A stretch of DNA of 64,000 nucleotides from an uncultured Polynucleobacter sp. (GTDB taxonomy: Bacteria; Bdellovibrionota_B; Oligoflexia; Oligoflexales; RGVZ01): positions 1,293-65,292 of the forward strand of contig CAYOEM010000012.1 of the NCBI GenBank assembly GCA_964402975.1, written 5' to 3'. Shown piece by piece: positions 8,068-23,760 of this stretch. Under the pieces are notes generated by a model, which saw nothing but the letters and a program-made list of their open reading frames with translations, made no database searches and was not told where the DNA came from. Made by a program: the position numbers and the translations under genes. The first letter of the stretch is position 1. Every line of letters begins with the position of its first letter.

Positions 8068-8082
8068 TTGCCATCCAATTGC

Positions 8083-8158
8083 CGCGGGGTGGAGAAGTTG
8101 GTATCTCGTCGGGCTCATAACCCGAAGACCGTAGGTTCAAGTCCTACCCCCGCTACCA
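8083..8158 (+). tRNA. initiator tRNA-Met (CAT anticodon)
   Basis: 76 nt. Nearly collinear with E. coli tRNA-fMet: CGCGGGG acceptor, three G-C pairs closing the anticodon stem (TCGGG CTCATAA CCCGA), T arm GTAGG TTCAAGT CCTAC, encoded CCA. Position 1:72 is an unpaired C:U, compared with C:A in E. coli. Confidence 0.9.
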
Positions 8159-8262
8159 ACATAAGTCACGGCTCTGATTGAATAAATCAGGGCCGTTAAT
8201 TTTTTGGGCTGGGGCAAAACAGGCTCCGATGGCAAACAAATGGCAAACATGAAAACGAAATC
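8109..8262. repeat. left copy of the 154-bp direct repeat (attL-like)
   Basis: Identical to 22701-22854 except T8210 versus A22802. Covers the 3' 50 nt of the tRNA, its terminator and about 100 nt downstream. Confidence 0.9.
8170..8205 (+). terminator. rho-independent terminator of the tRNA gene
   Basis: 10-bp stem GGCTCTGATT / AATCAGGGCC with one G-U pair, followed by GTTAATTTTTT. It lies inside the 154-bp repeat, so a second copy sits at about 22762-22797. Confidence 0.6.
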
Positions 8263-8270
8263 CACCGAAA

Positions 8271-9428
8271 TCACCTCACAACTGAGAGCATTGGTCGCTC
8301 AGAAACTTGGCTCTGAAATGACCTTGGACCAACGCTAAACATCGCTGCGGTGTCGGCGATCTTGTTGGGTAACAGATGAAGATAGATCATGGTCGTCTTC
8401 ATCTCCTTGTGACCCAAAATCTTACTGACAGTCACCAGATCAACGCCTCTGTCGATCATCAAGGTTGCCGCAGTATGACGTAGATCATGAAATCTTAACT
8501 CTCTAACACCTGAGGCTTCCAAATCTTTCTTAAAGTATCTTCTGATGAAGACCTCGTGACAGATGGGTGCGCCAGTCTCTTGGTGGTAGAAAAGCGTCGA
8601 AGCTGTGCTTGGTCGGTCCGTGCGGTAAAGTAGATCTTTGATCTCCGTTGCCAGGATTGAACTGCAAGGTACATTCCTAGCAGCTTTGCCCTTTGTCGGA
8701 CCCATTGCTTGTATGGATCTATCAAACTGGCGATCAACTCTAATCACATCGCCGACGGCCTTAGCATTGGGGAATTTCAGTCCCCAGATTTCACCTGAAC
8801 GCATCCCTGTGTTTAGCGCGGTTAAGTACACCACATAAACCCATCTCTCAGCACTTCCCGGTGGATACTTCGCGTTAGCAAAGGCCAAGAACTCCTCAGA
8901 CTCGTCACGATCCCAAAAGTCGATGTCTTTGCCGTCAGCCTTGAGCATCTTAAAACCCGCAGCGGCATTGAAGGGAATCCTCTTACAATCAAATGAGTGC
9001 TTAAGGATGGCTTTGATCACCTGGATCTTGTGATTCACAGTTTGGTTAGCCAGCCCCTCTCGGAGCTGGCGTGCCTGAAACTCTGTCAAAAAACCGTGAT
9101 GAAATCTGTCCGTCTTAAGCTTTCCTAGGCTAGGAAGGGTCTCGCGTAGAATCCCGTTCACTTTGATGGTGTGGGATTTGCTAAAAGATCTCCCGCGCGT
9201 CTCTAGCCAAAATTTGGCCTCATCGGCAAACGTCGTATGTTCCAGGTAAGACGCACCTTTTAGAGCTTTGTCAGCATCGAGTCGCTTCATAATGAACGAT
9301 TGTGCCTGCTCCCGAGTCTCAAACCTGAGGTTACGATGTCTACTGCCTCGTCCATTTTCCAAGAATCTAACTTGGAATTTTTGCTCTCCAGACCTTGTTT
9401 TTAACTTCTTTATTTTTGGAATTCTCAT
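8271..9428 (-). CDS. int: tyrosine-type site-specific integrase
   Basis: C-terminal catalytic motifs RFHDLRHTAATL, LGH and MIYLHL (R-HxxR-Y). Adjacent to the tRNA and att repeat. Confidence 0.9.
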   Translation of the reverse strand: MRIPKIKKLKTRSGEQKFQVRFLENGRGSRHRNLRFETREQAQSFIMKRLDADKALKGASYLEHTTFADEAKFWLETRGRSFSKSHTIKVNGILRETLPSLGKLKTDRFHHGFLTEFQARQLREGLANQTVNHKIQVIKAILKHSFDCKRIPFNAAAGFKMLKADGKDIDFWDRDESEEFLAFANAKYPPGSAERWVYVVYLTALNTGMRSGEIWGLKFPNAKAVGDVIRVDRQFDRSIQAMGPTKGKAARNVPCSSILATEIKDLLYRTDRPSTASTLFYHQETGAPICHEVFIRRYFKKDLEASGVRELRFHDLRHTAATLMIDRGVDLVTVSKILGHKEMKTTMIYLHLLPNKIADTAAMFSVGPRSFQSQVSERPMLSVVR

Positions 9429-9751
9429 AGTGCCTCACTGTCTACCCCATCTAAATTGGGGTTTTGAGAGGCAAACCAAGCCAAAAATATGTCGGTTCTA
9501 ATATAGAGCCTTCGATTAAGCGTTAGGAATAGCCTACTGGGGACACCTCTCATGGCTCCTCGATAGCGCCAATCATAGATGGTCGCTTTAGAGTAGCCGA
9601 AGTGTTCAGCAAACTGTTCTGTCCGCATAAGCTTTGGCAGGCTGTCAAAGAGCTGACCTGGCAGCATGAATTCGCTGCCAGTCAGTGTACTGGATACAAT
9701 GGTTTCTGGACCAAGGCCACTTTTATGTTCTTTTTTAAAAGCTTTAGTCAT
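9425..9751 (-). CDS. AlpA/excisionase-like helix-turn-helix DNA-binding protein
   Basis: HTH segment TEQFAEHFGYSKATIYDWRYRG. 4-bp overlaps with both the integrase and the upstream gene. Confidence 0.6.
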   Translation of the reverse strand: MTKAFKKEHKSGLGPETIVSSTLTGSEFMLPGQLFDSLPKLMRTEQFAEHFGYSKATIYDWRYRGAMRGVPSRLFLTLNRRLYIRTDIFLAWFASQNPNLDGVDSEAL

Positions 9752-11097
9752 TGTAGACCGCCCTTTCTACCGCTAGAGAGGTCGTAGGTCGTAGGGTCGT
9801 AGGCATCAATGCAATTTGGCTTAATTGTGGCCTTCCAGCGTGGCGAGCTACCTGATATATCCTCAAAGATCTTTCCCTCAGCCAAAAGATTTTGGATCAT
9901 TTCAGTAATCTCATTAGCAGGCTTATTTTTGTGAAAGACCACCTTTAAGATCTCGGTTCGCGTTAGGCCTTCTTCGGAAGCCTTGAGAGCCGCTAGCAAT
10001 TTTGCCTCGCCGTGGGAATTGGTTCTACGGACGTTGTTCAGAAAAAAGCTTGCACAGACATCCCGTGAATGATCCGTGATAATCTTTGCCGCCTTTAAGT
10101 GTTGGACATCTACTTGATTTTGGCAGTCAAACAGGGCGAAAGAGCAGGCAAGTCGCCGTAATATCGGAATATTTCGTGCTGTAAGATCTGTCATGACGGA
10201 TTCATCGTCAGAGAAGGACTCCGAATATATTTCCGTCCAAAGGTTTTTGGCATTATCTGTGAATGTTATCTCCCTTACGGTCTTGGCGTGTTTTATTACA
10301 TTTTTAATCTCTTTCGTAACTTCCAGGAGTTTCTCTTTGGGGATTGTGCCCCCTAGTGGAAGTAACTTTGACTTAGAGCATTGTATAAAAATAAACCGGT
10401 TCAAGACGCCGTTGTGGAAGTCCACCTCATCTACATATTTGTCAAATTCACGTTGTGTTATATGTGCGATCAAGGAGCCGAATGTATTATGGGCCACCGC
10501 AGGATTATGTTTAACCAAGGTTTGCAAGGTGTCAGCATCCCAGAGGCTGCGCAGGTTTCCGGAAAGGGTGTTTCCTTCGCGCTTTGTAACCTTCAGTACA
10601 TTTACAAACTCCTCTTCGATGATAATACAACTTAGGCTTTCACCTTTTACATTATCAGTAGTTTTCCCTGTCTGACCCGGATCTTTGGCCTTGAGATGGT
10701 GTATTAGGCCTTCACCAGAGCTCAAACCGCGCAAAATTTGAGCCTGGCAGAAGCGCTCGTCAATTTCTTGGAAAATACTTTTAACTAACGCAGTGCTCGT
10801 ACCTTTTCTGCCCGTCGAAGTCGGTCCAATAAGCAGCACAAACTGATTAAGGAAGTGTTTGGAACCCCCTGCACACCAGAACGACCTACGACCTACGACG
10901 TGAGCAGTGAATAAAAGAATCTGGATAAGAATAGGCAACGCAGCCGCTTCCGTGAACGGCATCACCTGTTCGACTATCTTTCCGGCACGACCAAAGTCAC
11001 TCATATTTGGTAGCCAACTAGACTTAGTTTCAGTTTTATTGTCAATAATTTCAGCTGAATAACATTCAGTCGGGTGGTTGATTTTTGAATCACTCAT
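9748..11097 (-). CDS. P-loop NTPase-like island replication or helicase-type protein (DUF3987-like)
   Basis: Walker A-like LLIGPTSTGRKGTST, Walker B-like SCIIIEEEF, and a C-terminal winged-helix-like segment. Its position between alpA-like and small genes resembles P4/PICI-type elements. The family assignment is from memory only. Confidence 0.45.
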   Translation of the reverse strand: MSDSKINHPTECYSAEIIDNKTETKSSWLPNMSDFGRAGKIVEQVMPFTEAAALPILIQILLFTAHVVGRRSFWCAGGSKHFLNQFVLLIGPTSTGRKGTSTALVKSIFQEIDERFCQAQILRGLSSGEGLIHHLKAKDPGQTGKTTDNVKGESLSCIIIEEEFVNVLKVTKREGNTLSGNLRSLWDADTLQTLVKHNPAVAHNTFGSLIAHITQREFDKYVDEVDFHNGVLNRFIFIQCSKSKLLPLGGTIPKEKLLEVTKEIKNVIKHAKTVREITFTDNAKNLWTEIYSESFSDDESVMTDLTARNIPILRRLACSFALFDCQNQVDVQHLKAAKIITDHSRDVCASFFLNNVRRTNSHGEAKLLAALKASEEGLTRTEILKVVFHKNKPANEITEMIQNLLAEGKIFEDISGSSPRWKATIKPNCIDAYDPTTYDLSSGRKGGLQ

Positions 11098-11315
11098 TTC
11101 TCACTCCCCTCGGAATCGACATATTTATCTAGTTCGGCGAGAATTTTACCGCCTAGCCCTCTATCTCCCAGGGCTTTCAAGAGCCGGCTGCGCAAAAAAA
11201 GCCACTGGCGGCTCTCTCCGATTTCCTGCTCGACGGCGTCAAGAATGACACCACGATAGAAGTCCATTATTTCTTGGATGCGAGTCTGAATTTCACTGTT
11301 AGGACAATATTTCAT
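11094..11315 (-). CDS. small hypothetical protein, first gene of the int operon
   Basis: 73-aa ORF with a 4-bp overlap onto the downstream gene. Confidence 0.45.
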   Translation of the reverse strand: MKYCPNSEIQTRIQEIMDFYRGVILDAVEQEIGESRQWLFLRSRLLKALGDRGLGGKILAELDKYVDSEGSEK

Positions 11316-11421
11316 TGTACCCCCCTTGTGGTAGTGTCCGAGAGGGTATGAAGAGACTACCCATCCATTCGCTCCCGGCCGTGTTATAGGGGCAACGCTA
11401 TCGAAGCAGAAAAAGACGGAA

Positions 11422-12315
11422 CTAGTTCCTCAGGCGGATTTCTTTCTTTTTTCTCGTTATATGATCTTTAAACCAGCGAATACTCGGGATGGCATCCGCA
11501 GGTTCAGTCTCTAAGGCGCGATTTTTGCACCGTTTAGCCAGTTTTTCGTTTTGTTCGCCAGGGTCTGCCTCTACCACCTCGGACACGAGATTCCAGAACA
11601 TATCAAAAAATATGGCTTTTTCTCCTGCTTGGCCACCAATTGACTGCGCCACTGGGTCACGATCGTAAAGCAGATAATGAAGTTCAGCGTATCCGCCGAG
11701 TAGTTGAGCCAATTGAAAGTCATCAAATTTACCTGTTTTGACCTGAATGGATGCTTTCTTGATAGACGACCATACAAGACCCACCATATAGAGCGTCGCC
11801 GCAGCTCTTGTTTCAGTTTCATTTAGTTGACTCGGACCAAATTTAAATTTTTTTGCCTTTGCAGGGTTGCTAGTCGCTTGCTTGGAAAATAACGCTACAG
11901 GTTTTTTTGAGCTTAACTTAGGTTTTTTTTGTTTATGGTTGGAGTTGCTCTTCTTTGGGCTATTTAACAATCGCTCAATTTCCTGAAACCTAGATAAGTA
12001 TAAGTGCTTCGAAAACGTTGTTTGTTCAAAAGGATTGCTAAAAAATGCATGCTGTTGCAGGTGGCTAGGGGTCTTGGCGCCTCTTGGATTGCTGTTTTTT
12101 TGGATTAGGTCAAGTAGCTCTATTATTAGTTTATTGATCAATTTGAGAGAGGCCGCTGAAAAAAAACCACCGTCATATCCTTGTTTTGAATCCGCCCCCA
12201 ATCTTCGAGCCAATATATATTTGCTATGATTTACGAAATTCTCAAGGTTTGCGGCGCCAAAAACCTGAAGCTCCTCAGGACTTAGTTCGTTGTAGTTTAT
12301 AAAATTTAAAGTCAT
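11422..12315 (-). CDS. hypothetical protein with a Lys-rich linker
   Basis: 297-aa ORF with a central KKSNSNHKQKKPKLSSKKP...AKAKKFKF segment. No family recognised. Confidence 0.5.
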   Translation of the reverse strand: MTLNFINYNELSPEELQVFGAANLENFVNHSKYILARRLGADSKQGYDGGFFSAASLKLINKLIIELLDLIQKNSNPRGAKTPSHLQQHAFFSNPFEQTTFSKHLYLSRFQEIERLLNSPKKSNSNHKQKKPKLSSKKPVALFSKQATSNPAKAKKFKFGPSQLNETETRAAATLYMVGLVWSSIKKASIQVKTGKFDDFQLAQLLGGYAELHYLLYDRDPVAQSIGGQAGEKAIFFDMFWNLVSEVVEADPGEQNEKLAKRCKNRALETEPADAIPSIRWFKDHITRKKKEIRLRN

Positions 12316-12421
12316 GTCTCAGTCCCATTTTCGGTTATTAAATTGCACCACCCAATACAGAAACATTTCGCTTCTTGCAGAATGCGGGCTTAATTGGTCA
12401 ACAGACCGGTATCTGTACAAT

Positions 12422-12435
12422 AAATCTCGAGATTT
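12422..12435. promoter_or_regulatory. perfect 14-bp palindrome in a divergent promoter region (candidate operator)
   Basis: AAATCTCGAGATTT lies immediately upstream of TATAAT (12437-12442), with a weak -35 TGTACA at 12414-12419. Confidence 0.35.
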
Positions 12436-12487
12436 GTATAATGTCGATCAGGATTACTACAATCGGGTTATATCTAAGGTAGAAAAA

Positions 12488-12796
12488 ATGGGACAACGAA
12501 TAGGATGTAAAAAACCCGTGGGAAGTGGACGCTCGAAAGGTACCCCCAACAAAAGGACTGCCTTCAATAGCGTATCATCACGGCTCGGAGAGCTTGGCTA
12601 TGACCTTGTCGGGGAGATTTTGCAAGATTTAGCATTGATTTCGGACCCCTACGACCGGGTCAAGCTTCACCTACAGCTACTTGAATATTGCGATGCGAGA
12701 AGAAAAGCTGTTGAGATAGCCGGTGATCAACTGAATGGATCAGTAACCGTCCCGCAGGTAATATTTACTATCGAAGGCGAAAGCAAAGATCGTTAG
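12488..12796 (+). CDS. small basic phage-like protein (possibly small-terminase/DUF5681-like)
   Basis: The ATG at 12488 has AAGG upstream. N-terminal KKPVGSGRSKGTPNKRT resembles the GRPKG-NK motif of phage small DNA-binding or packaging proteins. Weak call from memory. Confidence 0.35.
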   Translation: MGQRIGCKKPVGSGRSKGTPNKRTAFNSVSSRLGELGYDLVGEILQDLALISDPYDRVKLHLQLLEYCDARRKAVEIAGDQLNGSVTVPQVIFTIEGESKDR

Positions 12797-12916
12797 AGCG
12801 TGTTTGGCGGCCGAGTAATTTCAATCTAGTCGCTTGCTCACAAGTTTGACTCTCGGATGAAACCTGCTCTTTTTACAGGATCGTTACTATGCTGACAATC
12901 TGGTCAATTTTAAGAT

Positions 12917-13561
12917 TTATTGTCGTCCTAGGTATCTTATTTCTTTGACCTTAGTATTAAAAATTTCCTCAGCGCGCCTTTTTGCTTCGGCTCGATCGTC
13001 CTCACTTGGACGTATGAACCAGCAATATCCACCGTAAAATAATCCCGTTAAGTAGCAGAACATTTTTTCATGTTGACTAGCCTCAGTGGTGAACTCATTC
13101 GATGGCTCGCCGGATATGATGGCGTATTCCATCGGCTTATCCGCTAATTTCATCGCGATTCGGAATTTAACGTCCCTAAGCGTCCCACGAACGATTTTTT
13201 GTGACTTGTCCGAGTCTTCTGAATAGAGCGAAATCTCACTTGCTGTTCTCGGTGCTATTACAATATCTGGTGAATCCCGATCGGTGTTGATTCCCCGCGT
13301 TTCGCCGGAAATCGCGCGAAGGGAAGAATCACCCACTTGGATTACAGACTGCCTGTAGCTGACAGTCACCATGTCGTCAGTTAAATTTGTTACTTTAAAA
13401 TGATTTCGGCGTGCAGTTGAATCGATTTTAACAAATTTAGGAACTTTTCTTGCGGCGTCGACAACCTCTGGAAGCTCTGCCTGCCAGCGATAGGTTGTGC
13501 AAGAAAAAGATGTTAGTAAAACAAGGACGGACAAAAATAATGGGACTGTTCTTTGGGGCAT
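12917..13561 (-). CDS. secreted protein or lipoprotein, unknown function
   Basis: Signal peptide ending LLTSFSC. Confidence 0.5.
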   Translation of the reverse strand: MPQRTVPLFLSVLVLLTSFSCTTYRWQAELPEVVDAARKVPKFVKIDSTARRNHFKVTNLTDDMVTVSYRQSVIQVGDSSLRAISGETRGINTDRDSPDIVIAPRTASEISLYSEDSDKSQKIVRGTLRDVKFRIAMKLADKPMEYAIISGEPSNEFTTEASQHEKMFCYLTGLFYGGYCWFIRPSEDDRAEAKRRAEEIFNTKVKEIRYLGRQ

Positions 13562-13782
13562 TGTTAACCTCTTAATAGCAAAATAACTTCCGGGTTTACG
13601 GCGATCTTGTGCCGCAGTCTTGGCGAACCTTTAACATGCGTCGAAACTAGCAAATCTAACATCGATAGTGTGCCCTAATAAAAAGGGAATAGTCAATTTC
13701 ACTTTGATTAGAAGGAAGAGTCAAGCCGGTGGCTTCGCTAGCTATTATGTCCAATTCAATCCCCAATAATTTTTTAGACAAA

Positions 13783-14292
13783 TCACTCCATGCGACAATT
13801 TGTTTCAGCGCTAATACCTTCTCCGCTAGTGTAACTTGCTTTTCCTTTGACTAAATCGATAGACAACGATTGTCCGCCCCAGGTGGCAATGACACTTCCG
13901 CCGCGCTGTTCACATCGAAGATAAATTTGATCCAAAGTATCAATCTTCAAAGACGTATCAGCACCATTTTCCTGCCCCAAGATTGGGCTGAGAAGAGTAA
14001 CTTTGGCCAGCCTGTGATTAGTTGCTTTTTCCCCGGCCTTTAGGTCGCACAGGCCTTCTATGACGGTTACCCAGTCGCCCTTCGCAAGTTTTGATGGATG
14101 CGGATATTCAAATTTGAGTCTAAATGTTAAAAGCTCTCCACCGTATGGTTTTGTCAGACATGTCTCGTCCACCCATATCCCATAAACTTTCTTGTTAGAG
14201 GGCGCATTTCCTTTAAGGATACTTTTGACTTGGCCACCCTGAGTACATCCCGCAATTATCGAAATTGAAAATAAGAGTGCGATGCTTCGCAT
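13783..14292 (-). CDS. lipoprotein, unknown function
   Basis: Signal peptide with lipobox SIIAGC. Confidence 0.55.
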   Translation of the reverse strand: MRSIALLFSISIIAGCTQGGQVKSILKGNAPSNKKVYGIWVDETCLTKPYGGELLTFRLKFEYPHPSKLAKGDWVTVIEGLCDLKAGEKATNHRLAKVTLLSPILGQENGADTSLKIDTLDQIYLRCEQRGGSVIATWGGQSLSIDLVKGKASYTSGEGISAETNCRME

Positions 14293-14373
14293 ATTAGGTA
14301 CTCCCTCTAAAATTCTGCAGCATACTAATGGCTACCAATCTGATTACCAGATTCACGCCCTTAGAAGCTCCTT

Positions 14374-15213
14374 TCAAGCGCTCTTCTTGGTGTCTTCAAC
14401 CGTGATAGGTTCGTTTGTGGGGTTGCTTGGGCCAACGCTCGGATTTGCTGCATGGGGTGCGGGGGCAGCTGCCGCCGATTTTTGCCTTCTTTTTCGACGC
14501 TTTTTCTTCGAAAGTCCAATTTCTCCGGCATCCATTAACGACTCTTTTGTGACAATGGCTTTTAGAGACTCAAACACATCTTCCATGTCTAGTCTCGCGT
14601 CAGCTTGTCGATTTAACTCTCTTCTGAGTACATTCAGCACATCCTGAGAGAATAAGACCTTTACCACTACGCTTGGCTTTAGTGCCTTTTTCTGCCCCCA
14701 GAACTCGTCTAACAGCTCGTTAGTCATGGATTTTTTACAAAGCATGGAAACCATGCCCCAGAAGGATTCGAGATTTGATTCCAAGAAGTCAGTTTCAAAA
14801 GCTAAATCACTTTTAATGCCCTCATTTTCAGCAAATGAAACGTGGTAGAGCTGCCAATGGCAACCGTTAGTTAGAAGCACCCATGGCAGGCCTGATCGCG
14901 AGGCATAATTCTCAGCTTGCTCAATGTGCTTAGCAGATAATGATTTAACGCCTGCGGCTTTTGCTTCTACCAGAAGTTCAATTTCACCATCGATTTTCAG
15001 TGCGATGTCACAGTAGCGGTCTTTGATGGCGAGTTCTTTTGAAATTTCTCCCTTGAGGCTGTCATATTCCAAAGCCTCTTCAAAAAATTTGGTTAGATAC
15101 ATTACGGTGTCCGATTCATTCGCATCACGCTCTCGGGCTTCCTTGAACACCTGGGCATATTTTTTGAGAGTCGCCGCGAGTTTTTTATCGAGTGCCATAA
15201 GAATCCTTTCCAA
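14374..15213 (-). CDS. stand-alone type I restriction enzyme HsdR N-terminal-domain (PD-(D/E)xK fold) protein with a basic tail
   Basis: DIALKIDGEIELLVEAKAAG...QAENYASRSGLPWVLLTNGCHWQLY matches the HSDR_N_2 pattern (D...ExK...Q..Y...TNG..W). C-terminal KKKRRKRRQK tail. Confidence 0.65.
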   Translation of the reverse strand: MERILMALDKKLAATLKKYAQVFKEARERDANESDTVMYLTKFFEEALEYDSLKGEISKELAIKDRYCDIALKIDGEIELLVEAKAAGVKSLSAKHIEQAENYASRSGLPWVLLTNGCHWQLYHVSFAENEGIKSDLAFETDFLESNLESFWGMVSMLCKKSMTNELLDEFWGQKKALKPSVVVKVLFSQDVLNVLRRELNRQADARLDMEDVFESLKAIVTKESLMDAGEIGLSKKKRRKRRQKSAAAAPAPHAANPSVGPSNPTNEPITVEDTKKSA

Positions 15214-15788
15214 ATTTTCTAGAATGAAATATCGCCTCGCTGTTACGAAGGCACTAGCTCTTCGGCTAGAAGCCGATTCACATTAGGAAAATTACCGCGA
15301 TTTTCCTAAAACGTAGTTTTTTGAGATAGTTAAATTGTATTTGGAACTAACGTGTGAGAGAGGTAGAACATTAAGTAGCTGATAGCCCGAACATCAGGAA
15401 TATCTGAATCGGATAATATAATAATGCTAATTAAGGATTAAGGTGTAAATATTATTCCAATGATCGTCTAGATAGTAAAAGAGCCTGCCAAGATATCCTG
15501 ACGGTTTCTGAATGGCGTTGTTATTTCCTCAAATCAGGTAGAGATCAGAGCCGCCATTGCGCGCCCCACCGCTTCCGCCAAACGCTTCGCACCAACGTCG
15601 CGCCCATCCGCATTTAAAGCTAGCCATTCATTACCCCGCGGTTGGTTGTCTTAGGCATTTTAAAAGACATCTTAACAAGCCAACATTAGGGGATTATTCG
15701 GGTGACTTCAAGCTGTGCGGTCCCGCAGCCGCTAGATCCTAAAAGTGGCAGAAGTAATTTCAGAGTAGTTAGTCTGAAGGAGAAAGAT

Positions 15789-16001
15789 ATGAAGTATTTT
15801 CTTGTGATTATAGCGCTTAGTTTCAGCTCTTTAGCGTCCGCCAGCGAGTTTTGTGCCGGATTCGAGGAAGGGTGGAAGACGGTCAAAGGGGAGATGTCGC
15901 TTGTTCCGATGTGCCCACTGGAGCCGCTAACACCTCTGGGTTCAACCCCTTATCGTGAAGGATTAAAGGCCGGGATGAGGGCTGCCCAGCGTGGCTTCTA
16001 G
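15789..16001 (+). CDS. small secreted protein
   Basis: The ATG at 15789 is preceded by GAAGGAG. Signal peptide MKYFLVIIALSFSSLASA. Confidence 0.45.
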   Translation: MKYFLVIIALSFSSLASASEFCAGFEEGWKTVKGEMSLVPMCPLEPLTPLGSTPYREGLKAGMRAAQRGF

Positions 16002-16095
16002 GACTATTTCGGAGTTCCCTAAACCAGTTATCTAGATGGGCAATACCCTGGGAGCTACATTGTAAAAATCTCGAAAAAGATGGAGATGAAACCAC

Positions 16096-16281
16096 ATGAA
16101 AAATTTTTTAGGTATAGTCTCCGTTGGAGCAGCTATAAACTTATTTGGAGACTGTTTTGTGAAGGAGTTAAGTCAGAATCAGGTAATTTCGATCGCCGGT
16201 ATAGGCGTCATCACAAGTATCTGGTATTTTTGTATGCAAGTTGAAGCAATAGTTAGTCATTATTTTAAAACAAAATCATAG
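16096..16281 (+). CDS. small hydrophobic protein
   Basis: 61-aa ORF with GGAG about 10 nt upstream and two hydrophobic stretches. Confidence 0.3.
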   Translation: MKNFLGIVSVGAAINLFGDCFVKELSQNQVISIAGIGVITSIWYFCMQVEAIVSHYFKTKS

Positions 16282-16446
16282 TCGTTTAGTTCAGGAACTG
16301 GGAAGGCTGGGACTTCATTATTTGCGAACGAGTTTTATTCGCCGATAATATGATGATTTCCTGTATTCGCGTCTATCAAAAGACCTGTGAAAGCAATCAT
16401 TTTAGCTTAATGGTAATTAGTAAACCGCGACAGTCTTGGTTAGGTT

Positions 16447-16995
16447 TTATAATCTATACTTGAAATCGACTCCAAAAAATAAAAACAGACAGCCTAGCTG
16501 AGACGTCGGCGAAAGCATGCGATTTTCCTGTTTATAGACCTTAGTGCCGAGATCATTTTCACACGACTCAAGCCCTTTTTCGGCCGCGCCGATCTTCGTT
16601 GCCCCTCTGTTGAAAGCCCATTTGGAATCAGTTTTTTCGAAACTCATAAATGATAATATGTGTTTACAAAGTGAACCAGCTTGCTGATTGACCCAAATCC
16701 TGCCGTCCGTGCTAGTAAATGTAGTCCACGCGCTACGCCCTTCGGAATATATACTGCAGGTTAGCCATCCCTGCTTCTTGACTACTACCTCGCGCCAGAG
16801 GCAGTCAATCTCCGTGGCATAGGCCAAATTTGGTGACGCTGTCTTCGTCGTGCAAGTCGGCTCGATCCAAGCAACCCCGTCGTCGGTTTTCAGAAAAAAT
16901 CCCCCAGCTGGCAGATCCGACGACAAACAAGTTGTCGCCCATAACAGCGCACATGAGGAGATCCATAAACCGATATTTAGCGAGCTCGTTCTCAT
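16447..16995 (-). CDS. secreted Cys-containing protein, unknown function
   Basis: 182-aa ORF with an N-terminal hydrophobic signal-like segment. Confidence 0.45.
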   Translation of the reverse strand: MRTSSLNIGLWISSCALLWATTCLSSDLPAGGFFLKTDDGVAWIEPTCTTKTASPNLAYATEIDCLWREVVVKKQGWLTCSIYSEGRSAWTTFTSTDGRIWVNQQAGSLCKHILSFMSFEKTDSKWAFNRGATKIGAAEKGLESCENDLGTKVYKQENRMLSPTSQLGCLFLFFGVDFKYRL

Positions 16996-17078
16996 TTAGT
17001 TCCCCCATGATTAAATCTAGACTTCGCCCTGATTTGCAATTAGTCAGCAAAACCACTGGGGCTGATTTTAGACCGAGA

Positions 17079-17597
17079 TTACTGCTCCGTAAGTGGAAAT
17101 TCTGTGTCGGACGCCGTTACACCACTAACGGGACCACCAGCTACCTTAAGAGTAGGCGTAGACAGTGAAATATTCACGGTAAAGCGGAGCAAAACATTAT
17201 TACCCGCCCTACAAAAATTCTGCTGCTCGGTGTTAACGGCTTTAAGGTTGAACGTACAGCTGCTCAAATATCCGCCAGCATAATAAACTTGAGTCCAAAG
17301 GAGTCCTGTACCATCCGAATTCTTCGTCAATTGGGCTGCTGCCAGGGCACAGCTGAACGAATGTTCACAACCCTGGACATTATTAACCCCATTTAAATCC
17401 CCAGTTGCTGCATACGACCATCGCCGCTCCAATCCAATACTTAATATTTCCGAACTTCCATCGGGACACATCACGGTAGTTACTTCACTTTGGCGGGCAA
17501 CTGTACACTTGGTCTTGTCATCCTTCTCTTTTGAGCAGGACAAGGATAGAGTCACAAGCCCGAAGGATAGCAAAAACTTGTCAAAAGTGATTGTCAT
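17079..17597 (-). CDS. lipoprotein, unknown function
   Basis: Signal peptide with lipobox LSLSC. Multiple Cys residues. Confidence 0.5.
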   Translation of the reverse strand: MTITFDKFLLSFGLVTLSLSCSKEKDDKTKCTVARQSEVTTVMCPDGSSEILSIGLERRWSYAATGDLNGVNNVQGCEHSFSCALAAAQLTKNSDGTGLLWTQVYYAGGYLSSCTFNLKAVNTEQQNFCRAGNNVLLRFTVNISLSTPTLKVAGGPVSGVTASDTEFPLTEQ

Positions 17598-17782
17598 AGT
17601 AAAAATTTCCCAAATTTCATCTAGAGAGATAATGGTAAATCGGCTCGAATGGAGTCTATCAGTCAGGCGTACATAATCAATGCTATTAGGTTCAAGCCAA
17701 ATTTCTCGAAAAGAACACGGTTTAGGTGTTTAGCCCACAAGGCAGAGTGGCTCGCGCTAACTTAAGCAGACGGATATTTCGA

Positions 17783-17818
17783 ATAGCAAACCGTTAGCAA
17801 ACATCCCGCCAAAACCAA
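17783..17818. repeat. 36-bp direct repeat, copy A (att-arm-like)
   Basis: ATAGCAAACCGTTAGCAAACATCCCGCCAAAACCAA is identical to 22566-22601. It contains the tandem AGCAAAC-N4-AGCAAACAT, like GGCAAAC-N4-GGCAAACAT in the 154-bp repeats. Confidence 0.8.
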
Positions 17819-17944
17819 GCGACCCACTGATAAATACCCCGCCACCAAAACCTTATAATGCGGTATTTATTGACGAATTTTTCCCCTCACTTTTTTACTA
17901 ATCAGCTTCAACAACTCGACCGATTTGCGCTACTGGGGGGAGCG

Positions 17945-18175
17945 ATGAAACTTGGTGTGATTCTGATGACGTCTCTGCTTTTAGCTGGTGTTGGTTATGT
18001 TTATCAATCCGTCCAGGGCGAGGTCGATAGCACGGACAGGATCGTCGCAAACGGGTCGGAAACGCTCTATGGGAGAGGCTGCTGTAGCCACCACGGTGGG
18101 CAGGACTATTGCAGAAGTGATGGCAGGTGGGTGTGTCGAGACGGGACAGTATCGCCCAGTTGCAGGTGCTACTAA
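17945..18175 (+). CDS. small secreted Cys-rich protein
   Basis: Signal or TM segment MKLGVILMTSLLLAG. C-terminal GRGCCSHHGGQDYCRSDGRWVCRDGTVSPSCRCY. Confidence 0.45.
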   Translation: MKLGVILMTSLLLAGVGYVYQSVQGEVDSTDRIVANGSETLYGRGCCSHHGGQDYCRSDGRWVCRDGTVSPSCRCY

Positions 18176-18229
18176 CTTTGACCAATAGGGCCATCACGGG
18201 CCAAATTGTTAAAAAGAGAAAGGCTTGCC

Positions 18230-18436
18230 ATGATAAAAGTCATATCTTTTGTTCTTCTTTCCAACATCGTACTTACTAGCTGCGAGACAACCACAGATTG
18301 GTCAAAAGTTGATTTAAGCCCTCTACAAGCTCTTACGAATACTTGGGCGCCGCCAAGAGTTTCTGAGGGCGAGTGCAGAACATATACGAAGCTAGATGAA
18401 TGGGGCACGCCCGTGCAGGTGACCCGATGCAAATAA
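18230..18436 (+). CDS. small lipoprotein
   Basis: The ATG at 18230 has AGAAAGG upstream. Lipobox VLTSC. Confidence 0.45.
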   Translation: MIKVISFVLLSNIVLTSCETTTDWSKVDLSPLQALTNTWAPPRVSEGECRTYTKLDEWGTPVQVTRCK

Positions 18437-19269
18437 GAAGATTTAAATTTAATGCGTTCATTATAGCATTTGTTTTAAACGCCATCCTATTACTTAACGG
18501 CTGCAAAGCAGCTTATACCTACGAGCTATACAAATACAGTGCCACCAAGGAAAACTTGATTGCTACATTTCCGGGCGAATCAGAATTTCAAGCTGAGCAT
18601 AATTGCAAAATTTTCTCTGAAATGCATGACAAGGAATATGGCACAAGGTTAATGTGTTTGAAGGGTGGCAGCTCTGCAGACGGAACGCCCGGTGGCGGCA
18701 ATACAGGAATGCTAATATTCATTTTGATTGGAATGGCCGCAGGGATGTTACTTGTTAAGTTCTATAAAACAATGACCGTAAATATAGCGGCGTGCATAAA
18801 ATGTCGTAATCCAATAGCAGAAATCGATTTGCGCTGCTCCAAGTGTGAAGAACCGGTAATCTCTCAACGCTCATCTAACAGCTCAACAACGGCCGAGCGC
18901 TGGCATAAGCATTGTGATGATTATGAGATAGACCCTCAACATCGCGAGATTCTTTGGCAGAAGGGTAGAAAACTGGATAAATCTGCTGTTATTGGCTGGA
19001 GTGTCCTATCTATACTCGTCGGAGCTGTCTATTACGCTTGTTTGAATACGAATTCAGGTGAGAGTAATCAGAGAGGTCATGTATGGCTGATTTTTCTACT
19101 GGCTAGCCTCGTGTTTGCCTCATTGGTGGCTCTGAATGGACAAATGTTTTCCTGGATCAAGGAAGCGTTCGGTGCTGACAAGGAGAGGTATGAACAGTCA
19201 ACTATACTATTTGGTTTTTTTATTTGGATGGTCTGGGCTTTTTCGTTTTGGAGTAAAGTTTCTATTTGA
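18427..19269 (+). CDS. lipoprotein or membrane protein with a zinc-ribbon motif
   Basis: Lipobox LLNGC. CIKCRNPIAEIDLRCSKCEEP. Several TM segments. Confidence 0.5.
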   Translation: MQIRRFKFNAFIIAFVLNAILLLNGCKAAYTYELYKYSATKENLIATFPGESEFQAEHNCKIFSEMHDKEYGTRLMCLKGGSSADGTPGGGNTGMLIFILIGMAAGMLLVKFYKTMTVNIAACIKCRNPIAEIDLRCSKCEEPVISQRSSNSSTTAERWHKHCDDYEIDPQHREILWQKGRKLDKSAVIGWSVLSILVGAVYYACLNTNSGESNQRGHVWLIFLLASLVFASLVALNGQMFSWIKEAFGADKERYEQSTILFGFFIWMVWAFSFWSKVSI

Positions 19270-19389
19270 ATTTACTCGATTAATTTATTGAGAGCAGAAA
19301 TCGAAATTTATGAGATTGCTCACTCAGAAAGTTTGAAGTCGTGAGGTTTTAAAAATCTTTAATAATATTAATGCTAACTACCGTCTCAT

Positions 19390-19632
19390 GTGAGACGTGT
19401 CCGGCTTGCTAGTAAGCTAGAGTGGGGTTATAGCGTCTACGAGAAGGGACCTAATCAGTGCTACGAGTATAGAAGCTTTTTCTTTACCAAAGAGGATTGT
19501 GACTGGTATTCAGAAAAAATGGCACTGAGATGCCTGGGTGGTGAATATCTCCAAGAGCTTGAAATGCAGCAACCCGCTTGTTGGAAGACGGAAGGGATCG
19601 CTGCTAGAGGGGAGTGTAATCGCCTGGACTAA
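19390..19632 (+). CDS. hypothetical small protein
   Basis: 80-aa ORF with a GTG start and no recognised features. Confidence 0.25.
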   Translation: MRRVRLASKLEWGYSVYEKGPNQCYEYRSFFFTKEDCDWYSEKMALRCLGGEYLQELEMQQPACWKTEGIAARGECNRLD

Positions 19633-19698
19633 GCAGCATTCTTAAAGAAGTATTAAATTATATAAATCCGATTCCTAAAGTGGTTTGCTAATCACGTT

Positions 19699-21519
19699 TC
19701 ATGTGCAATTTGGACATTTATAATTCGAAGTCTTCTTTGCTAGGGAAAACGTGATTCCTTTCGAATTTTTTTTGTTTAGTATTTTATGAATCTGCTGTGG
19801 CGCAAGTTTAAAATTCTTGCTGCATAAACAGCACCGTTTATTTTTGCAACTCTGGCAGTACAAACCCCTGGCGCATCTAGCTGTAAATATTTTCTCACAA
19901 ATAGAACATGTGGTAGTGTAGCGTTCTCTTTCGGATTTATAGAGACCTCGGCATTTAATTGAACAAAAAATGTTCTTCCCCTTTTTCTTAGCCCTGCGAT
20001 GGTGGCGTCCATATGGGAACATCGAATTACAGTAATCACAAACCGAGGTATCTTTGCTGCAGGACGCACAAATTCTTTTGCGGGAGACTGCGTCCATCAC
20101 AGCACCGCAATCGACACACGACTTGGGCTCTAACCCGGCCTTTGATCTGATACACTTAGAGCAGTAGTGACCACCATTTTTTGGGAATTGTTCAATTGGA
20201 AGAGCTGGTCGACCTTCACAGCCTCTGCAAATTCGTTGGCCTGATGTTTTCTCTAGCTCGTCACTTGTTCCGCAATTTAGACCGTGCTCCCCGCAATAGG
20301 CATTTATAGCTTCTGGTTTTTTGGTGAACTTTTTTTTGCCGCAAACGCAACAATCCCTTTCGAAGTACTCATTGCCGTCCTCGAGACCAATGAATTTTCC
20401 AACTCTCAAATCATGCATGGCTGTAATGTGACCATGAGATATAATTTTAAGATTCGTTTGAGTCTCTGTGTGGTATTTAAGCGCGCATTGATAGTATTTT
20501 GAAGTTCTTTGAATGGGTTTTTCCCCTGCCCATAGCCATACGAATTTGATTTTCGCTTTGGCACAATATTGCTTTAGGGCCTGGTTCTTTTTTGCTGAGC
20601 GTTCTTGTTGTCTCCCCTTGCATTCGGCGAGCCCCACGTCTTTGCCTTGCCTGATGATGGCGAAGTCAGGGCAAAAGTACCACCGCCCGATTTTAATTGA
20701 ATGTCTGTTATTTTTTGGGACTTTAGATAATTTTTCAATAACGTCCCCAGTGGGAAAATGATCAAAGAGAAAAAATAAAGTGGCAAGTTCGCTAAGACTA
20801 TCGTACCTCATAAGCGTTTTCGTTCTATTTGTATGGATAAATCCAGAATATGAAGATTCAAGTGTTATAAGTTTTGCCTCGGAAAGTGCGTGCTTGAACG
20901 AATCCATACTTGTTTCTGGATGCACGGCTTGTCGGTGTCGATACCATGGTCGAATATCACCGATGGCACCAAAGGTGCTGGCTTTGCATATGGGGCATTC
21001 TAGTTTTTCGAGCTTTGATTTGACTGTCCTGATGTTTGCACCTACAGATCGGCAATGGTCGCAAATCAGGTCTAAGTAGTGCTTGAGGTTTCCCCAGTTA
21101 GGATCGACCTTGATGGGATTTATCCTAGAAGTACATCCATTTATCATACAAGTGATCTCGATAGGCAGTTTCGGGTCGAGCGCAGGGTCGACAGCGAGGC
21201 GGTCCTCTATCAAAGCGATGTGGTTGTGAAGGTGTGCGAGTTCGGGCAGTTTAAAGATTTCTAGTCCTAAAAGAAAGTCTTCGGTCTTATCCTTTTGCTT
21301 TAGTTGTCTTTTTTTGAAGTGTTCACTATAGTCCAGATGCTTTACCAATCTTAAGTCACTTCGTCTTGTAGTAATTCCTAAAGCGGAACGATCAAGCGCT
21401 TTAGCGATATCGGCATCGGTGCGACCTGAACGCCACATGTGCTCTATGGTGTGATCTTCCTCTCTCGAATAGTTTTTTCGTTTCATATCGTATCCCCACA
21501 AAAACCAAGGCTCGGACAT
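19699..21519 (-). CDS. multidomain protein: Myb/GcrA-like HTH, then TnsA-N-like PD-(D/E)xK nuclease, then multiple zinc ribbons
   Basis: N-terminus YSREEDHTIEHMWRSGRTDADIAKAL. Core DSLSELATLFFLFDH...WYFCPDFAIIRQGKDVGLAECKG matches the TnsA endonuclease N-terminal pattern (S-LE ... PDF ... ExK). The C-terminal ~230 aa holds at least 6 CxxC...CxxC pairs. The likely start is M12 at 21486, which has GGGGA upstream. Confidence 0.6.
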   Translation of the reverse strand: MSEPWFLWGYDMKRKNYSREEDHTIEHMWRSGRTDADIAKALDRSALGITTRRSDLRLVKHLDYSEHFKKRQLKQKDKTEDFLLGLEIFKLPELAHLHNHIALIEDRLAVDPALDPKLPIEITCMINGCTSRINPIKVDPNWGNLKHYLDLICDHCRSVGANIRTVKSKLEKLECPICKASTFGAIGDIRPWYRHRQAVHPETSMDSFKHALSEAKLITLESSYSGFIHTNRTKTLMRYDSLSELATLFFLFDHFPTGDVIEKLSKVPKNNRHSIKIGRWYFCPDFAIIRQGKDVGLAECKGRQQERSAKKNQALKQYCAKAKIKFVWLWAGEKPIQRTSKYYQCALKYHTETQTNLKIISHGHITAMHDLRVGKFIGLEDGNEYFERDCCVCGKKKFTKKPEAINAYCGEHGLNCGTSDELEKTSGQRICRGCEGRPALPIEQFPKNGGHYCSKCIRSKAGLEPKSCVDCGAVMDAVSRKRICASCSKDTSVCDYCNSMFPYGRHHRRAKKKGKNIFCSIKCRGLYKSERERYTTTCSICEKIFTARCARGLYCQSCKNKRCCLCSKNFKLAPQQIHKILNKKNSKGITFSLAKKTSNYKCPNCT

Positions 21520-21678
21520 TATTAGCGAGGGTTTCTCCAGTAGCTCAAAGTCCTAGAAAATTACTGAAAAAAACTGGGCTACCACCTGAAAAGCGTTTAC
21601 ACGGCTTAGGCTTGATAGCTCTTGTTTTTCTTTCATTTTGACCCAACCTTAACGGGAGTCGTCTTTTTTCTTGGTGTA

Positions 21679-22458
21679 TCAATAATCTTCATACTCCAAG
21701 TCTTGAAGTATGGTAATCATCGCCACATCATCTACGCGGAAGAAAGCATCTTCCCCATCGTCATCCTCAAACTCGATGAATTCACTGCAATTTGGGTCCA
21801 CGTCGAGACGATTTATCAGATCTGAAAATTGGCCTTCAATTGAATCAAAGTCATTGTCATATGTATTGTCTGGTTCGATTTTGAATGCCAATGGTTGTGG
21901 TGCATTGGCAAGAGTCACGCAAAGATGGTTAATGGGATGTTTGCCCTGTTTAGGTTCGATGTCGGTTATGTCTGGGTCCCAAAGTGTATGGAAATGTATA
22001 ACGTGCTTTAAATTGATAGCCACCTCTAAATTTTCTGAATCAAAGCAGAAGAACTCCAGTGGTCTTCGATCAATTACTTTTCTTAATCTTTGGATTGTTC
22101 CGGCAGAGACAGGGAAATAGTGCTTTGAGCCACCCCTTAGAAGTAAAACAAGAGTCCAGCGTAGGGGATCTGCATCGATTCCTGTTTCTTGCTCTGCTTC
22201 GAGAATCTTGTCGGGATCTGAAAAATCTTTTCTAGGCTGAAGTTTTTTGAGCTTTTTCTCGTGGCCTTTTGTTGCAGGAAACGCGTCACCCAATTCACAG
22301 TTGAGTGCGTCGCAGATTCTCGCGGCCATATGCATCTTTACCGCTTGTCTGGCATTTTCAATCCGCTGAATCTGTTGTTGACTTGTTCCAACTGCTTTAG
22401 CGAGGTCTCGTTGAGACATCCCACGAGCGTTTCTGAATTCTTTGATTTTGTTTTTCAT
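21679..22458 (-). CDS. XRE-family HTH regulator fused to an unknown acidic C-terminal domain
   Basis: N-terminus KEFRNARGMSQRDLAKAVGTSQQQIQRIENARQ. About 190 aa of unrecognised C-terminal sequence ending in an acidic tail. Located upstream of the 606-aa gene and in the same orientation. Confidence 0.7.
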   Translation of the reverse strand: MKNKIKEFRNARGMSQRDLAKAVGTSQQQIQRIENARQAVKMHMAARICDALNCELGDAFPATKGHEKKLKKLQPRKDFSDPDKILEAEQETGIDADPLRWTLVLLLRGGSKHYFPVSAGTIQRLRKVIDRRPLEFFCFDSENLEVAINLKHVIHFHTLWDPDITDIEPKQGKHPINHLCVTLANAPQPLAFKIEPDNTYDNDFDSIEGQFSDLINRLDVDPNCSEFIEFEDDDGEDAFFRVDDVAMITILQDLEYEDY

Positions 22459-22565
22459 TTAGAAACTCTAAATTTGCTCTATAAACAAAATGTGTCTATC
22501 GTGACACGCACAGCGTGTCAAGGCGGATTCTCGAAGAAATCTGTTTGTTGGCATAAAGCTGGTCG

Positions 22566-22601
22566 ATAGCAAACCGTTAGCAAACATCCCGCCAAAACCA
22601 A
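22566..22601. repeat. 36-bp direct repeat, copy B
   Basis: Identical to 17783-17818. The following ~45 nt align by eye at roughly two-thirds identity with 8231-8277, the arm next to attL. Confidence 0.8.
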
Positions 22602-22700
22602 CCGAAATGACCCGTACTAGACCGAACATATTTTGTGACTTAACTTGCCGTAGTTATTGAAAAAAACTAACAATTACGCTGCGTTAAAAAGAGCGTCTTC

Positions 22701-22854
22701 TCGGGCTCATAACCCGAAGACCGTAGGTTCAAGTCCTACCCCCGCTACCAACATAAGTCACGGCTCTGATTGAATAAATCAGGGCCGTTAATTTTTTGGG
22801 CAGGGGCAAAACAGGCTCCGATGGCAAACAAATGGCAAACATGAAAACGAAATC
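22701..22854. repeat. right copy of the 154-bp direct repeat (attR-like) with a partial tRNA-fMet 3' half
   Basis: See 8109-8262. It lacks the tRNA 5' half, so it is not a functional tRNA gene. Confidence 0.9.
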
Positions 22855-23734: not shown

Positions 23735-23760
23735 TTTGACTGTATGCATAGGATTACCAG

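Follow-up and report, generated by a model that had tools for sequence, protein, structure and literature searches.

A probable integrase-mediated genomic island at the initiator tRNA-Met gene of an uncultured Bdellovibrionota-like bacterium

The DNA analysed here is a 64-kb stretch of contig CAYOEM010000012.1 (hereafter, the window, meaning the whole stretch), in which a tRNA-Met(CAT) gene is followed by a 14.4-kb segment, 8263-22700, that is enclosed by long direct repeats and headed by a tyrosine integrase gene. Based on the evidence presented below, this segment is very probably an integrase-mediated genomic island inserted in the initiator tRNA-Met gene. The flanks of the island encode PrmA, RsmE and a mitochondrial-type aconitase; the named relatives of the aconitase, at about 66% identity, belong to Pseudobdellovibrio exovorus and to metagenome-assembled genomes of Oligoflexia, Bdellovibrionota or 'Deltaproteobacteria'. 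These names indicate, as the probable host, an uncultured lineage within Bdellovibrionota; the integrase cluster names gave nothing more specific than 'Pseudomonadota bacterium'. ARAGORN detects this one tRNA gene in the 64 kb, and Rfam reports the same one in positions 7000-24000. Bacterial initiator tRNAs are recognised by a 1:72 mismatch, an A11:U24 pair and a run of three G:C pairs where the anticodon stem meets its loop. As read from its sequence, the tRNA at 8083-8158 has these initiator features, namely a C1/U72 mismatch, A11:U24 and G29-G31:C39-C41 closing the anticodon stem. A promoter-like element, TTGACA-17 nt-TATAAC, lies 5′ of the gene at 8040-8068 and is also kept in L083, one of the related contigs and unitigs, labelled L083-L096, that we compared with the window.

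A repeat search of the window returned the pair 8104-8262/22696-22854 (159 nt, 98% identity). Direct reading delimits in it an uninterrupted identity block, 8109-8262 and 22701-22854, with 153 of 154 nucleotides matching and T8210 versus A22802 as the only mismatch. The block comprises tRNA positions 27-76 (50 nt), the terminator hairpin and 66 more bases with two tandem octamers, so that 104 nt of the identity lie past the tRNA and include the terminator and both octamers. In the right copy, 22701-22750 correspond to tRNA positions 27-76 in the same orientation as the intact gene, and neither ARAGORN nor Rfam calls a tRNA there. The 25-mer of the tRNA 3′ end, with up to three mismatches allowed, occurs twice in the window versus 0 expected, and low-stringency blastn found no third copy of the repeat in the window. 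The integrase gene lies at the left end of the 14,438-nt interior, and its stop codon starts 9 nt past the block, with 8 nt between the block end and the stop. Its product has all of the catalytic residues (R210, K246/248, H314, R317, H340 and Y349). The GC content of 8263-22700 is 0.442 versus 0.472 for the rest of the window, which is below all same-size windows elsewhere in the stretch (minimum, 0.450), and the tetranucleotide distance is likewise highest over the island; the compositional shift is thus real but small. An earlier note on this DNA had claimed direct repeats with exactly these borders and this mismatch, an integrase gene beside the tRNA, an initiator tRNA as target, a right repeat holding a 3′ tRNA fragment only and an AT-rich interior. 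Direct reading reproduced the repeats to the base, the integrase proved to be full-length and adjacent to the intact tRNA, and the initiator identity and the fragmentary right copy were borne out, as was the AT-richness, which is slight.

Two relatives carry the same locus without the insertion. L083, a 285-kb contig, was the sole return of a scan of Joint Genome Institute (JGI) metagenomes with 27 nt of the block; because it was found through the block sequence, the conservation of these 27 nt in it is by construction. Its order follows that of the window, i.e., the aconitase 3′ end (88%), the tRNA and block (91.5%), the equivalent of 22701-23718 (88%) and the subtilisin gene (78.5%), with nothing matching window 8263-22700. 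L096, a 241-kb contig whose aconitase is 92% identical in amino acid (aa) sequence, was found independently through aconitase homologues and shows the order aconitase, tRNA-fMet, block, and then polyprenyl synthase, carotenoid and rhodopsin genes, with no integrase and no island. Therefore, the 14.4 kb are an insertion relative to two related genomes, and the empty site for which the earlier note proposed to look, tRNA-fMet without the 14.4-kb insert, was found twice. None of the findings that it had named as contrary to an insertion (no empty sites, no compositional shift, repeats other than described) was encountered. Among species-representative genomes, the relatives in the aconitase synteny search had at most 66% aa identity among the matches listed, and none of those listed had a tRNA nearby.

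The insertion and its two borders are also seen in independent data. Unitigs of the same strain from four Sequence Read Archive runs (SRR6262237-SRR6262240) reproduce the window sequence exactly and stop 29-30 nt inside each repeat, which is where a k=31 graph should break when both junctions are present. A prophage would be in keeping with the phage-like integrase and repressor-like genes, and a repeat-bounded segment could also be an assembly or duplication artefact. Nevertheless, the probability that we give to either is negligible: no structural, lysis or terminase gene is present and no structural PHROG category was matched, the island measures only 14.4 kb, both junctions recur in the unitigs of the four runs, which break off precisely at the edges of the repeats, and occupied and unoccupied states are both seen in relatives. 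Both readings were rejected on these grounds. The locus has the features by which Islander defines such islands, i.e., an intact tRNA gene, a displaced 3′ fragment in the same orientation, an internal tyrosine integrase gene, an interior within 2-200 kb and unoccupied relatives. It is a well-supported but ordinary case of the tRNA-gene genomic islands, with a predicted anticodon-centred attachment site.

The island belongs to a family of related elements found at the same tRNA in five relatives, with integrases 58-95% identical to that of the window. The integrases of L087 (95% aa identity), L084 (78%) and L088/L089 (78%) lie in the same orientation beside the tRNA-Met(CAT) gene that adjoins the aconitase gene, with about 112 nt between the integrase stop and the tRNA 3′ end in each. 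In L088, the element is complete, measures 9.0 kb and has direct repeats of its own. L085 carries a 7.85-kb element with a 58% identical integrase; a tRNA fragment lies at either end of this element, which therefore belongs to a tandem array. The 40%-identical integrase of L086, which is identical to the Bdellovibrio sp. NC01 integrase P0057, adjoins a canonical C1:A72 initiator tRNA and has a TraG gene upstream. In every relative examined, the integrase gene and the HTH_17 gene next to it are kept as a pair in the same position; the slot after them varies (DUF3987, AAA_25, Toprim+AAA_25 or DUF6371), and the cargo differs and includes Eco57I/MmeI-type, Mrr, HNH and EVE genes. The closest element, L087, matches window 8030-9653 and 11062-12799 at 90.5-91% DNA identity; the AAA_25 gene that it has between these shared stretches shows no detectable similarity to the ATPase gene of the window. 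The aconitase gene of the L087 host is only 80.6% identical in nucleotides to that of the window, and L083, from a closer host (88%), is without the element. The disagreement between element and host divergence indicates that the element family has spread horizontally.

Three side observations concern these relatives. Just past attR of the L085 element, at 1623-2870 of that sequence, lies a group II intron reverse transcriptase gene (RVT_1+GIIM). A second accessory segment of L085, at 11300-21158, encodes an AEP-TOTE/DEAD helicase, an HTH_37 protein and a ParE-like toxin; it is located between the integrase-side tRNA fragment and the presumed intact tRNA, i.e., in a tandem array. Finally, a comparison of L084, L087, L088, L093 and L096 with window 8131-8147 showed that host groups are set apart by compensatory changes in two pairs of the tRNA-fMet T-stem (GTAGG/CCTAC versus ACAGG/CCTGT), and the attL of L087 has the T-stem version of its local host group, though its element is the closest to that of the window.

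Comparison of three independent insertions points to the position of the crossover. Counted in tRNA positions, the identity begins on its left at 27 in the window, at 29 in L088 and at 32 in L085, whose direct repeat is limited to positions 32 to ~73, i.e., from the anticodon loop up to the 3′ end of the acceptor. All that the repeats of the three insertions share is the stretch from the anticodon loop through the 3′ part of the tRNA. The anticodon stem-loop, of which a second copy lies at 22701-22717, has inverted stem arms around a 7-nt loop, as in a tyrosine-recombinase core. We infer from these alignments that the crossover fell within the anticodon loop or directly behind it, with the 7-nt loop itself as the likeliest place. 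At the sole mismatch between attL and attR, attR has the base of the unoccupied site of L083; this one position fits a chromosomal origin of attR and an element-derived attL. In the mechanism that we propose, the circular element would carry as its core site a copy of the tRNA anticodon stem-loop, which the integrase would recombine with the tRNA gene of the chromosome. The resulting tRNA gene would have its own promoter and 5′ part and would take its 3′ part and terminator from the integrase-side arm of the element, and the original 3′ part would end up 14.6 kb away. It had been claimed that the 3′ half of the tRNA is now supplied by the element; this would hold with a crossover in the anticodon loop, the position that the comparison favours, and hinges on it.

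A crossover downstream of the tRNA, at the right end of the block near CATGAAAACGAAATC, would leave the tRNA untouched and place the 3′ fragment on the other arm of the element. Such an exchange would agree with the chromosomal flanks of the relatives, which diverge within 10 nt of each other just past the octamers, with the 38-nt segment there, which is the most conserved part of the block, and with L087, in which the tRNA and terminator part of the block follows the host lineage and not the element lineage. Nevertheless, we regard it as very improbable. The L085 repeat starts in the anticodon loop and stops at the acceptor 3′ end, and no downstream block follows its chromosomal copy; since this repeat is confined to the tRNA, the L085 crossover was inside the tRNA. 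The new arm of L088 differs from the resident block over 28 nt and the octamers, which places the exchange to the left of that stretch. Additionally, the left identity edges converge on the anticodon loop, and an anticodon-centred attP has been mapped in 2083 of 3919 tRNA-gene islands, i.e., about half (PMC4383910).

Both arms of the island carry paired octamers. In the right-end arm, they form the sequence TAGCAAAC-CGT-TAGCAAAC-AT at 22567-22587, -142 from the loop centre; this arm also holds the conserved motifs CCAAAACC-N-ACCGAAATGACCC and GTTATTGAAAAA. On the integrase side, the corresponding pair is built of TGGCAAAC (Table 1). Four matches to T[AG]GCAAAC-N3-T[AG]GCAAAC-AT were counted in the window versus 0.03 expected, every one on the + strand: at 8230 and 22822 (the two copies of the block), at 22567 (the right-end arm) and at 17784 (inside the island). 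A fifth GCAAAC pair at 18047, inside an open reading frame (ORF), has one mismatch and is within chance (0.51 expected), and it was left out of the count. L088 keeps GCAAAC on both arms, and L084, with a 78% identical integrase, conserves 100% of the 38 nt that surround the octamer pair, the terminator region having diverged. L085 has, instead of the GCAAAC pairs, ATGGTGCAC/ATGGTTCAC pairs (ATGGT[TG]CAC repeats) at -141 and +114; its right arm has ATGGTGCAC twice at the same offset as the right-arm pair of the window, and the L085 octamer pattern without mismatches occurs nowhere else in its 21 kb. Because the geometry is kept while the octamer sequence changes on both arms together, the octamer pairs are probably arm-type integrase sites. 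In this arrangement, the pairs ~140 bp to the left and 113 bp to the right of the core would bind the N-terminal domain of the integrase, and the HTH_17 protein would direct excision. The predicted model of integrase residues 1-75 comprises three strands and a helix, with a predicted local distance difference test score (pLDDT) of 79.

The earlier note had called the 154-bp identity unusually long. The length is real; it is not a property of the crossover, as the chromosomal site already has a copy of the arm. The block next to tRNA-fMet is also present in both unoccupied relatives (L083 and L096) and in L093-L095, and three different flanks start after CATGAA, CATGAAAA or CATGAAAACGAAATC, within 10 nt of one another. 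In L088, the chromosomal copy runs on, with 86% identity, ~45 nt into the 3′ end of the integrase gene of the resident element; judging from this alignment, the extension is a stub of an older integrase gene. The own arm of the new L088 element differs from the older copy over 28 nt. The chromosomal side of L085 has no block at all, and because its repeat is confined to the tRNA, the crossover appears to need the tRNA part only. The repeat of the window would then be long because the chromosomal site already carried a copy of the integrase-side arm of the family. In the simplest reading of these data, the block at tRNA-fMet is probably the integrase-side arm left as a scar by an earlier family member, and new arrivals with the same arm make a long repeat. 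An order of integration, decay and renewed integration has been described for other islands (PMC5704250). The block copy of L083 differs from both window copies at six or seven positions; on the assumption of a scar, the 153/154 identity in the window would require a recent exchange between the copies, by gene conversion or occasional homologous excision. A third att remnant delimiting an older island to the right was not found in the window.

Directly to the right of attR, at 22953-23734, lies a pair of genes for a DUF6036 nucleotidyltransferase and a CopG/BrnA-like antitoxin, which is kept in the unoccupied L083; a DUF6036 gene also lies just upstream of the aconitase gene in L093-L095. This pair could be cargo of an older, decayed island, of which no third att fragment was found in the window.

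Several observations count against parts of the interpretation given so far. The empty sites come from relatives that are 8-20% diverged, and the exact empty-site pattern for this strain had 0 matches in JGI metagenomes. The same-strain unitigs, which are too short to span the block, show both junctions and neither an excised circle nor a repaired site. Transfer, packaging and relaxase genes were not recognised in Pfam, PHROG and PADLOC scans. The covariation of the octamers rests on a single switch, from GCAAAC to GTGCAC, and for the modelled residues 1-75 of the integrase, Foldseek found no significant PDB match and Pfam no arm-binding domain. With regard to the scar, local alignments in search of an integrase 3′ stub in the right flank of the window or of L083 were no better than shuffles, so that a scar origin rests on L088 and L085 by analogy. 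In addition, the block and its octamers are conserved at all sites, occupied or not, which a simple scar model would not lead one to expect, and the block could be native chromosomal DNA captured by the family. It is also conceivable, if improbable, that the retained block is a maintained 'landing pad' for islands, or that the octamers are a host regulatory site co-opted as arm sites. A landing pad would make the bare tRNA gene an attL-like site with arm-type sites, favouring repeated capture and turnover of family islands. With these points taken into account, we hold the position of the crossover, the role of the octamers, the origin of the long repeat from a scar and present-day mobility each to be moderately probable.

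The island contains ~18 ORFs, of which five match any Pfam or PHROG family (Table 1). The interior had been described as full of orphan genes, which agrees with this low count, though three of the cargo ORFs are shared at ~90% nucleotide identity with L087. These are the ORFs at 11094-12796, common to the sister element (90.5% nucleotide identity to L087 202-1936).

Table 1. Features of the tRNA-fMet locus and the island, in window coordinates
Feature	Position	Strand	Evidence or remark
Intact tRNA-Met(CAT), initiator-type	8083..8158	+	ARAGORN; Rfam RF00005, 64.4 bits
attL identity block	8109..8262	+	153/154 match to 22701-22854
Predicted core site TCGGG-CTCATAA-CCCGA (anticodon stem-loop)	8109..8125	+	7-nt loop 8114-8120, likely overlap
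tRNA terminator hairpin	8168..8196	+	12-bp stem and T run; identical copy at 22760-22788
Integrase-side arm (P′), candidate sites	8230..8250	+	Tandem octamers TGGCAAAC-AAA-TGGCAAAC-AT, 11-bp period; +113 from loop centre
Tyrosine integrase, 385 aa	8271..9428	-	PF00589 5.8e-27; PHROG 1 5.9e-51
HTH_17 protein, 108 aa	9425..9751	-	PF12728 4e-7; PHROG 66 'excisionase and transcriptional regulator'
Helicase-like P-loop ATPase (DUF3987), 449 aa	9748..11097	-	PHROG 5311 helicase 1.2e-14; PHROG 3022 DNA primase (C-terminal part) 5.8e-14
Three ORFs: 73 aa (-), 297 aa (-), 160 aa (+)	11094..12796		No Pfam/PHROG/PADLOC match
Two small ORFs, 214 and 169 aa	12917..14292	-	Hydrophobic N-terminus followed by Cys, e.g. 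MRSIALLFSISIIAGC; no Pfam/PHROG/PADLOC match
HSDR_N_2 protein (restriction-endonuclease-like domain), 279 aa	14374..15213	-	PF13588 1.5e-7; PHROG 17239 (unknown function) 2.5e-48
Two ORFs, 182 and 172 aa	16447..17597	-	Signal-peptide-like N-termini; no family match
Internal 40-nt copy of right-end arm start, including TAGCAAAC twice	17783..17822	+	One mismatch versus 22566-22605
Three cargo ORFs, 105, 289 and 80 aa	17858..19632	+	No family match
Cys-rich near-orphan protein, 606 aa	19699..21519	-	No Pfam/PHROG/PADLOC match
XRE-family HTH_3 regulator, 259 aa, right end of island	21679..22458	-	PF01381 3.1e-15; PHROG 3 transcriptional repressor 6.6e-14
Right-end arm (P), candidate sites	22562..22700	+	82% identical to right end of L088 element, cargo unrelated
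attR: displaced tRNA 3′ fragment and chromosomal block copy	22701..22854	+	Contiguous with flank in unoccupied L083

The integrase has about 1059 homologues and is at most 27% identical to any GenBank phage integrase. The HTH_17 gene overlaps the integrase start by 4 nt, and its product is a probable excisionase or AlpA-like regulator, as suggested by its family matches. The 449-aa ATPase that follows has a DUF3987 Pfam score of 24.1 bits, under the cut-off of 27; Pfam and PHROG place no primase domain in it, the matches being limited to the helicase/C-terminal part of primase-helicases. Together, these similarities make it a probable replication module, and the ATPase would replicate the excised circle. 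A PDB sequence search with this protein gave armadillo-repeat matches only, which were judged spurious.

The cargo between these core genes and the XRE gene comprises ~13 ORFs, and only the 279-aa HSDR_N_2 protein among them has a family match; it also has a weak PADLOC match to a type IIG restriction endonuclease (1.1e-7). From their N-termini, the 214- and 169-aa ORFs look like lipoproteins or secreted proteins, and the 289-aa ORF has hydrophobic segments and CxxC pairs. The largest cargo ORF, the 606-aa protein, has many CxxC pairs and, as read from its translation, a PD-(D/E)xK nuclease-like PDF...ECK motif. A word-indexed search with this protein retrieved nothing but itself; a set of 1.84 billion representative proteins contains three relatives, 32-33% identical to it.

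The internal 40-nt copy of the right-end arm divides the island into a 9.5-kb part with the core genes and a 4.8-kb part with five ORFs, which include the near-orphan and XRE genes. The L092 unitigs break at both 40-nt copies. It is possible that the internal copy is a relic of a former right end, left when two tandem elements were fused by a deletion starting in the arm of the first one. Alternatively, it could be an extra integrase-binding site, located in a divergent promoter region.

The gene content bears on the class of the element. Capsid, tail, terminase, lysis, relaxase, coupling protein and type IV secretion genes were not recognised in the island by Pfam, PHROG and PADLOC scans. A whole-island megablast against PLSDB plasmids and GenBank phages gave no match, and searches of IMG/VR with the att sequence and with the integrase gave 0 matches. 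As a subtype of integration, the island could be a P4-like phage satellite or one resembling the phage-inducible chromosomal islands (PICI), with helper-induced excision and replication and packaging in helper capsids. The gene order (integrase, HTH_17 protein and a primase/helicase-type ATPase, with an XRE gene at the far end), the size of 9-15 kb, the replication slot swapped among relatives (DUF3987, AAA_25, Toprim+AAA_25, DUF6371) and the restriction-type cargo of relatives (Eco57I/MmeI, Mrr, HNH, EVE) would all suit a satellite. Such a core order, swapped replication slot and restriction cargo are typical of satellites and of small defence islands. We nevertheless consider a satellite rather unlikely: PHROG and Pfam searches with all ORFs recognised no capsid-remodelling, small-terminase, packaging or helper-interference gene (unrecognisable analogues are possible), this copy is without a primase domain, nothing related is present in IMG/VR or GenBank phages, and no helper phage is known.

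An integrative mobilizable element, transferred by the machinery of a co-resident conjugative element, is a further candidate that we judge distinctly unlikely. Small integrase islands without transfer genes are commonly of this type (PMC5704250), and the 40%-identical integrase of L086, also at tRNA-fMet, lies beside a TraG-type coupling protein gene. Against this, neither a relaxase, coupling protein or type IV secretion gene nor a recognisable origin of transfer was found in the island itself.

It is unlikely, too, that the island is a real past insertion that is now fixed, immobile and decaying and is kept by vertical descent. The JGI pattern search and the short unitigs gave no attP or attB evidence for this strain, the arm relic at 17783-17822 suggests a past rearrangement, and relatives hold decay products such as the L088 integrase stub and the tandem fragments of L085. 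Arguing for an element that can still move are the full-length integrase with all catalytic residues, the intact and translationally coupled HTH_17 gene, the 153/154 identity of the repeats, the intact octamers on both arms, and the sister element, which matches at 91% although the flanking gene of its host matches at only 80.6%. On the strength of the integrase and HTH_17 genes, the arms and the repeats, the genomic island may well be mobile at present.

Further features were noted in the neighbourhood. Between the aconitase and tRNA genes of the window, a 1.3-kb segment (6690-8002) holds a single gene, for an AAA_14+DUF4143 ATPase (6713-7858, - strand), which matches the PADLOC candidate defence family PDC-S01 (1.2e-51). 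This segment is present only in this strain and absent from L083, L084, L087, L088, L093 and L096, which have ~30-400 nt between aconitase and tRNA; no flanking repeats were found around the ATPase gene. At 28621-32724, a gene for a proton-antiporter-like subunit is followed by one for a DabA-family protein (annotated on the identical unitig L090), resembling DAB-type inorganic carbon uptake. In L096, positions 13192-22412, to the right of the block, encode a polyprenyl synthase, phytoene desaturase and synthase, lycopene cyclase, carotenoid oxygenase and bacteriorhodopsin, i.e., a retinal-rhodopsin cluster in a Bdellovibrionota-like genome.

Through our analysis, a poorly sampled Bdellovibrionota-like clade gains a sharply bounded island whose ends are mapped, for which unoccupied sites are known and which has seven relatives, five of them at this chromosomal site; the current understanding of how such islands work is left unchanged. 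What emerges is an integrase family with the initiator tRNA gene as its consistent target; because this gene cannot be lost, the element must rebuild it exactly. Of greatest interest are the arm motifs that covary, the copy of the arm kept at unoccupied sites, the exchange of replication cassettes and the unknown cargo. Arm motifs that change together with the integrase are a testable prediction of integrase specificity and could serve genome engineering. The family is also a natural experiment: its members retain integrase and excisionase, exchange replication cassettes and carry variable cargo, most of it unknown. Since the cargo of relatives has restriction-type genes, that of the island is a reasonable place to seek new defence genes.

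Among known systems, the island most directly recalls the tRNA and tmRNA islands catalogued by Islander (Hudson, Lau and Williams 2015; PMC4383910), with an integrase gene beside the intact gene, the displaced fragment at the other end and a tRNA gene that the island would regenerate. Tandem arrays, of which Islander lists 125 cases (PMC4383910), occur in the relatives here. The island differs from these in its uncultured host clade, in an integrase no more than 27% identical to GenBank phage integrases, and in a 154-nt block that reaches 104 nt beyond the tRNA.

In E. coli, tRNA-fMet is encoded by metV. This gene is among the most used tRNA-gene hotspots of that species (PMC7545054), so that an initiator tRNA gene as target is common to both cases, whereas the integrase family, host phylum and cargo are unrelated, a statement made without sequence comparison.

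The accretion and decay model of cis-mobilizable elements (CIME) was developed for conjugative and mobilizable elements of Firmicutes (Pavlovic et al. 2004; Bellanger et al. 2011; reviewed in PMC5704250). Its decay and re-integration at the same att site account for the L088 stub, the tandem fragments of L085 and possibly the relic at 17783-17822. In contrast to that model, no second flanking att fragment of the putative older element is left in the window.

P4-like and PICI satellites share with the island a core of integrase, AlpA-like helix-turn-helix protein and primase/helicase-type protein, the 9-15 kb size and a variable cargo, which in relatives includes restriction-type genes; they differ from it in that the island has no recognisable capsid-size, packaging or helper-interference genes and no IMG/VR match.

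Finally, the comparison extends to the lambda-type heterobivalent integrases (lambda, HP1 and L5). The N-terminal domain of the island integrase has no significant match to a solved arm-binding domain, and one putative set of arm sites is here also present in the chromosomal flank. HP1 reportedly shares a very long (~180 bp) tRNA-containing identity with its host. As in the lambda-type systems, the predicted core has inverted half-sites around a 7-nt spacer, a small helix-turn-helix protein, the predicted directionality factor (PF12728/PHROG 66), is encoded beside the integrase gene, and, as a sequence pattern, directly repeated short motifs lie on both arms ~110-140 bp from the core.

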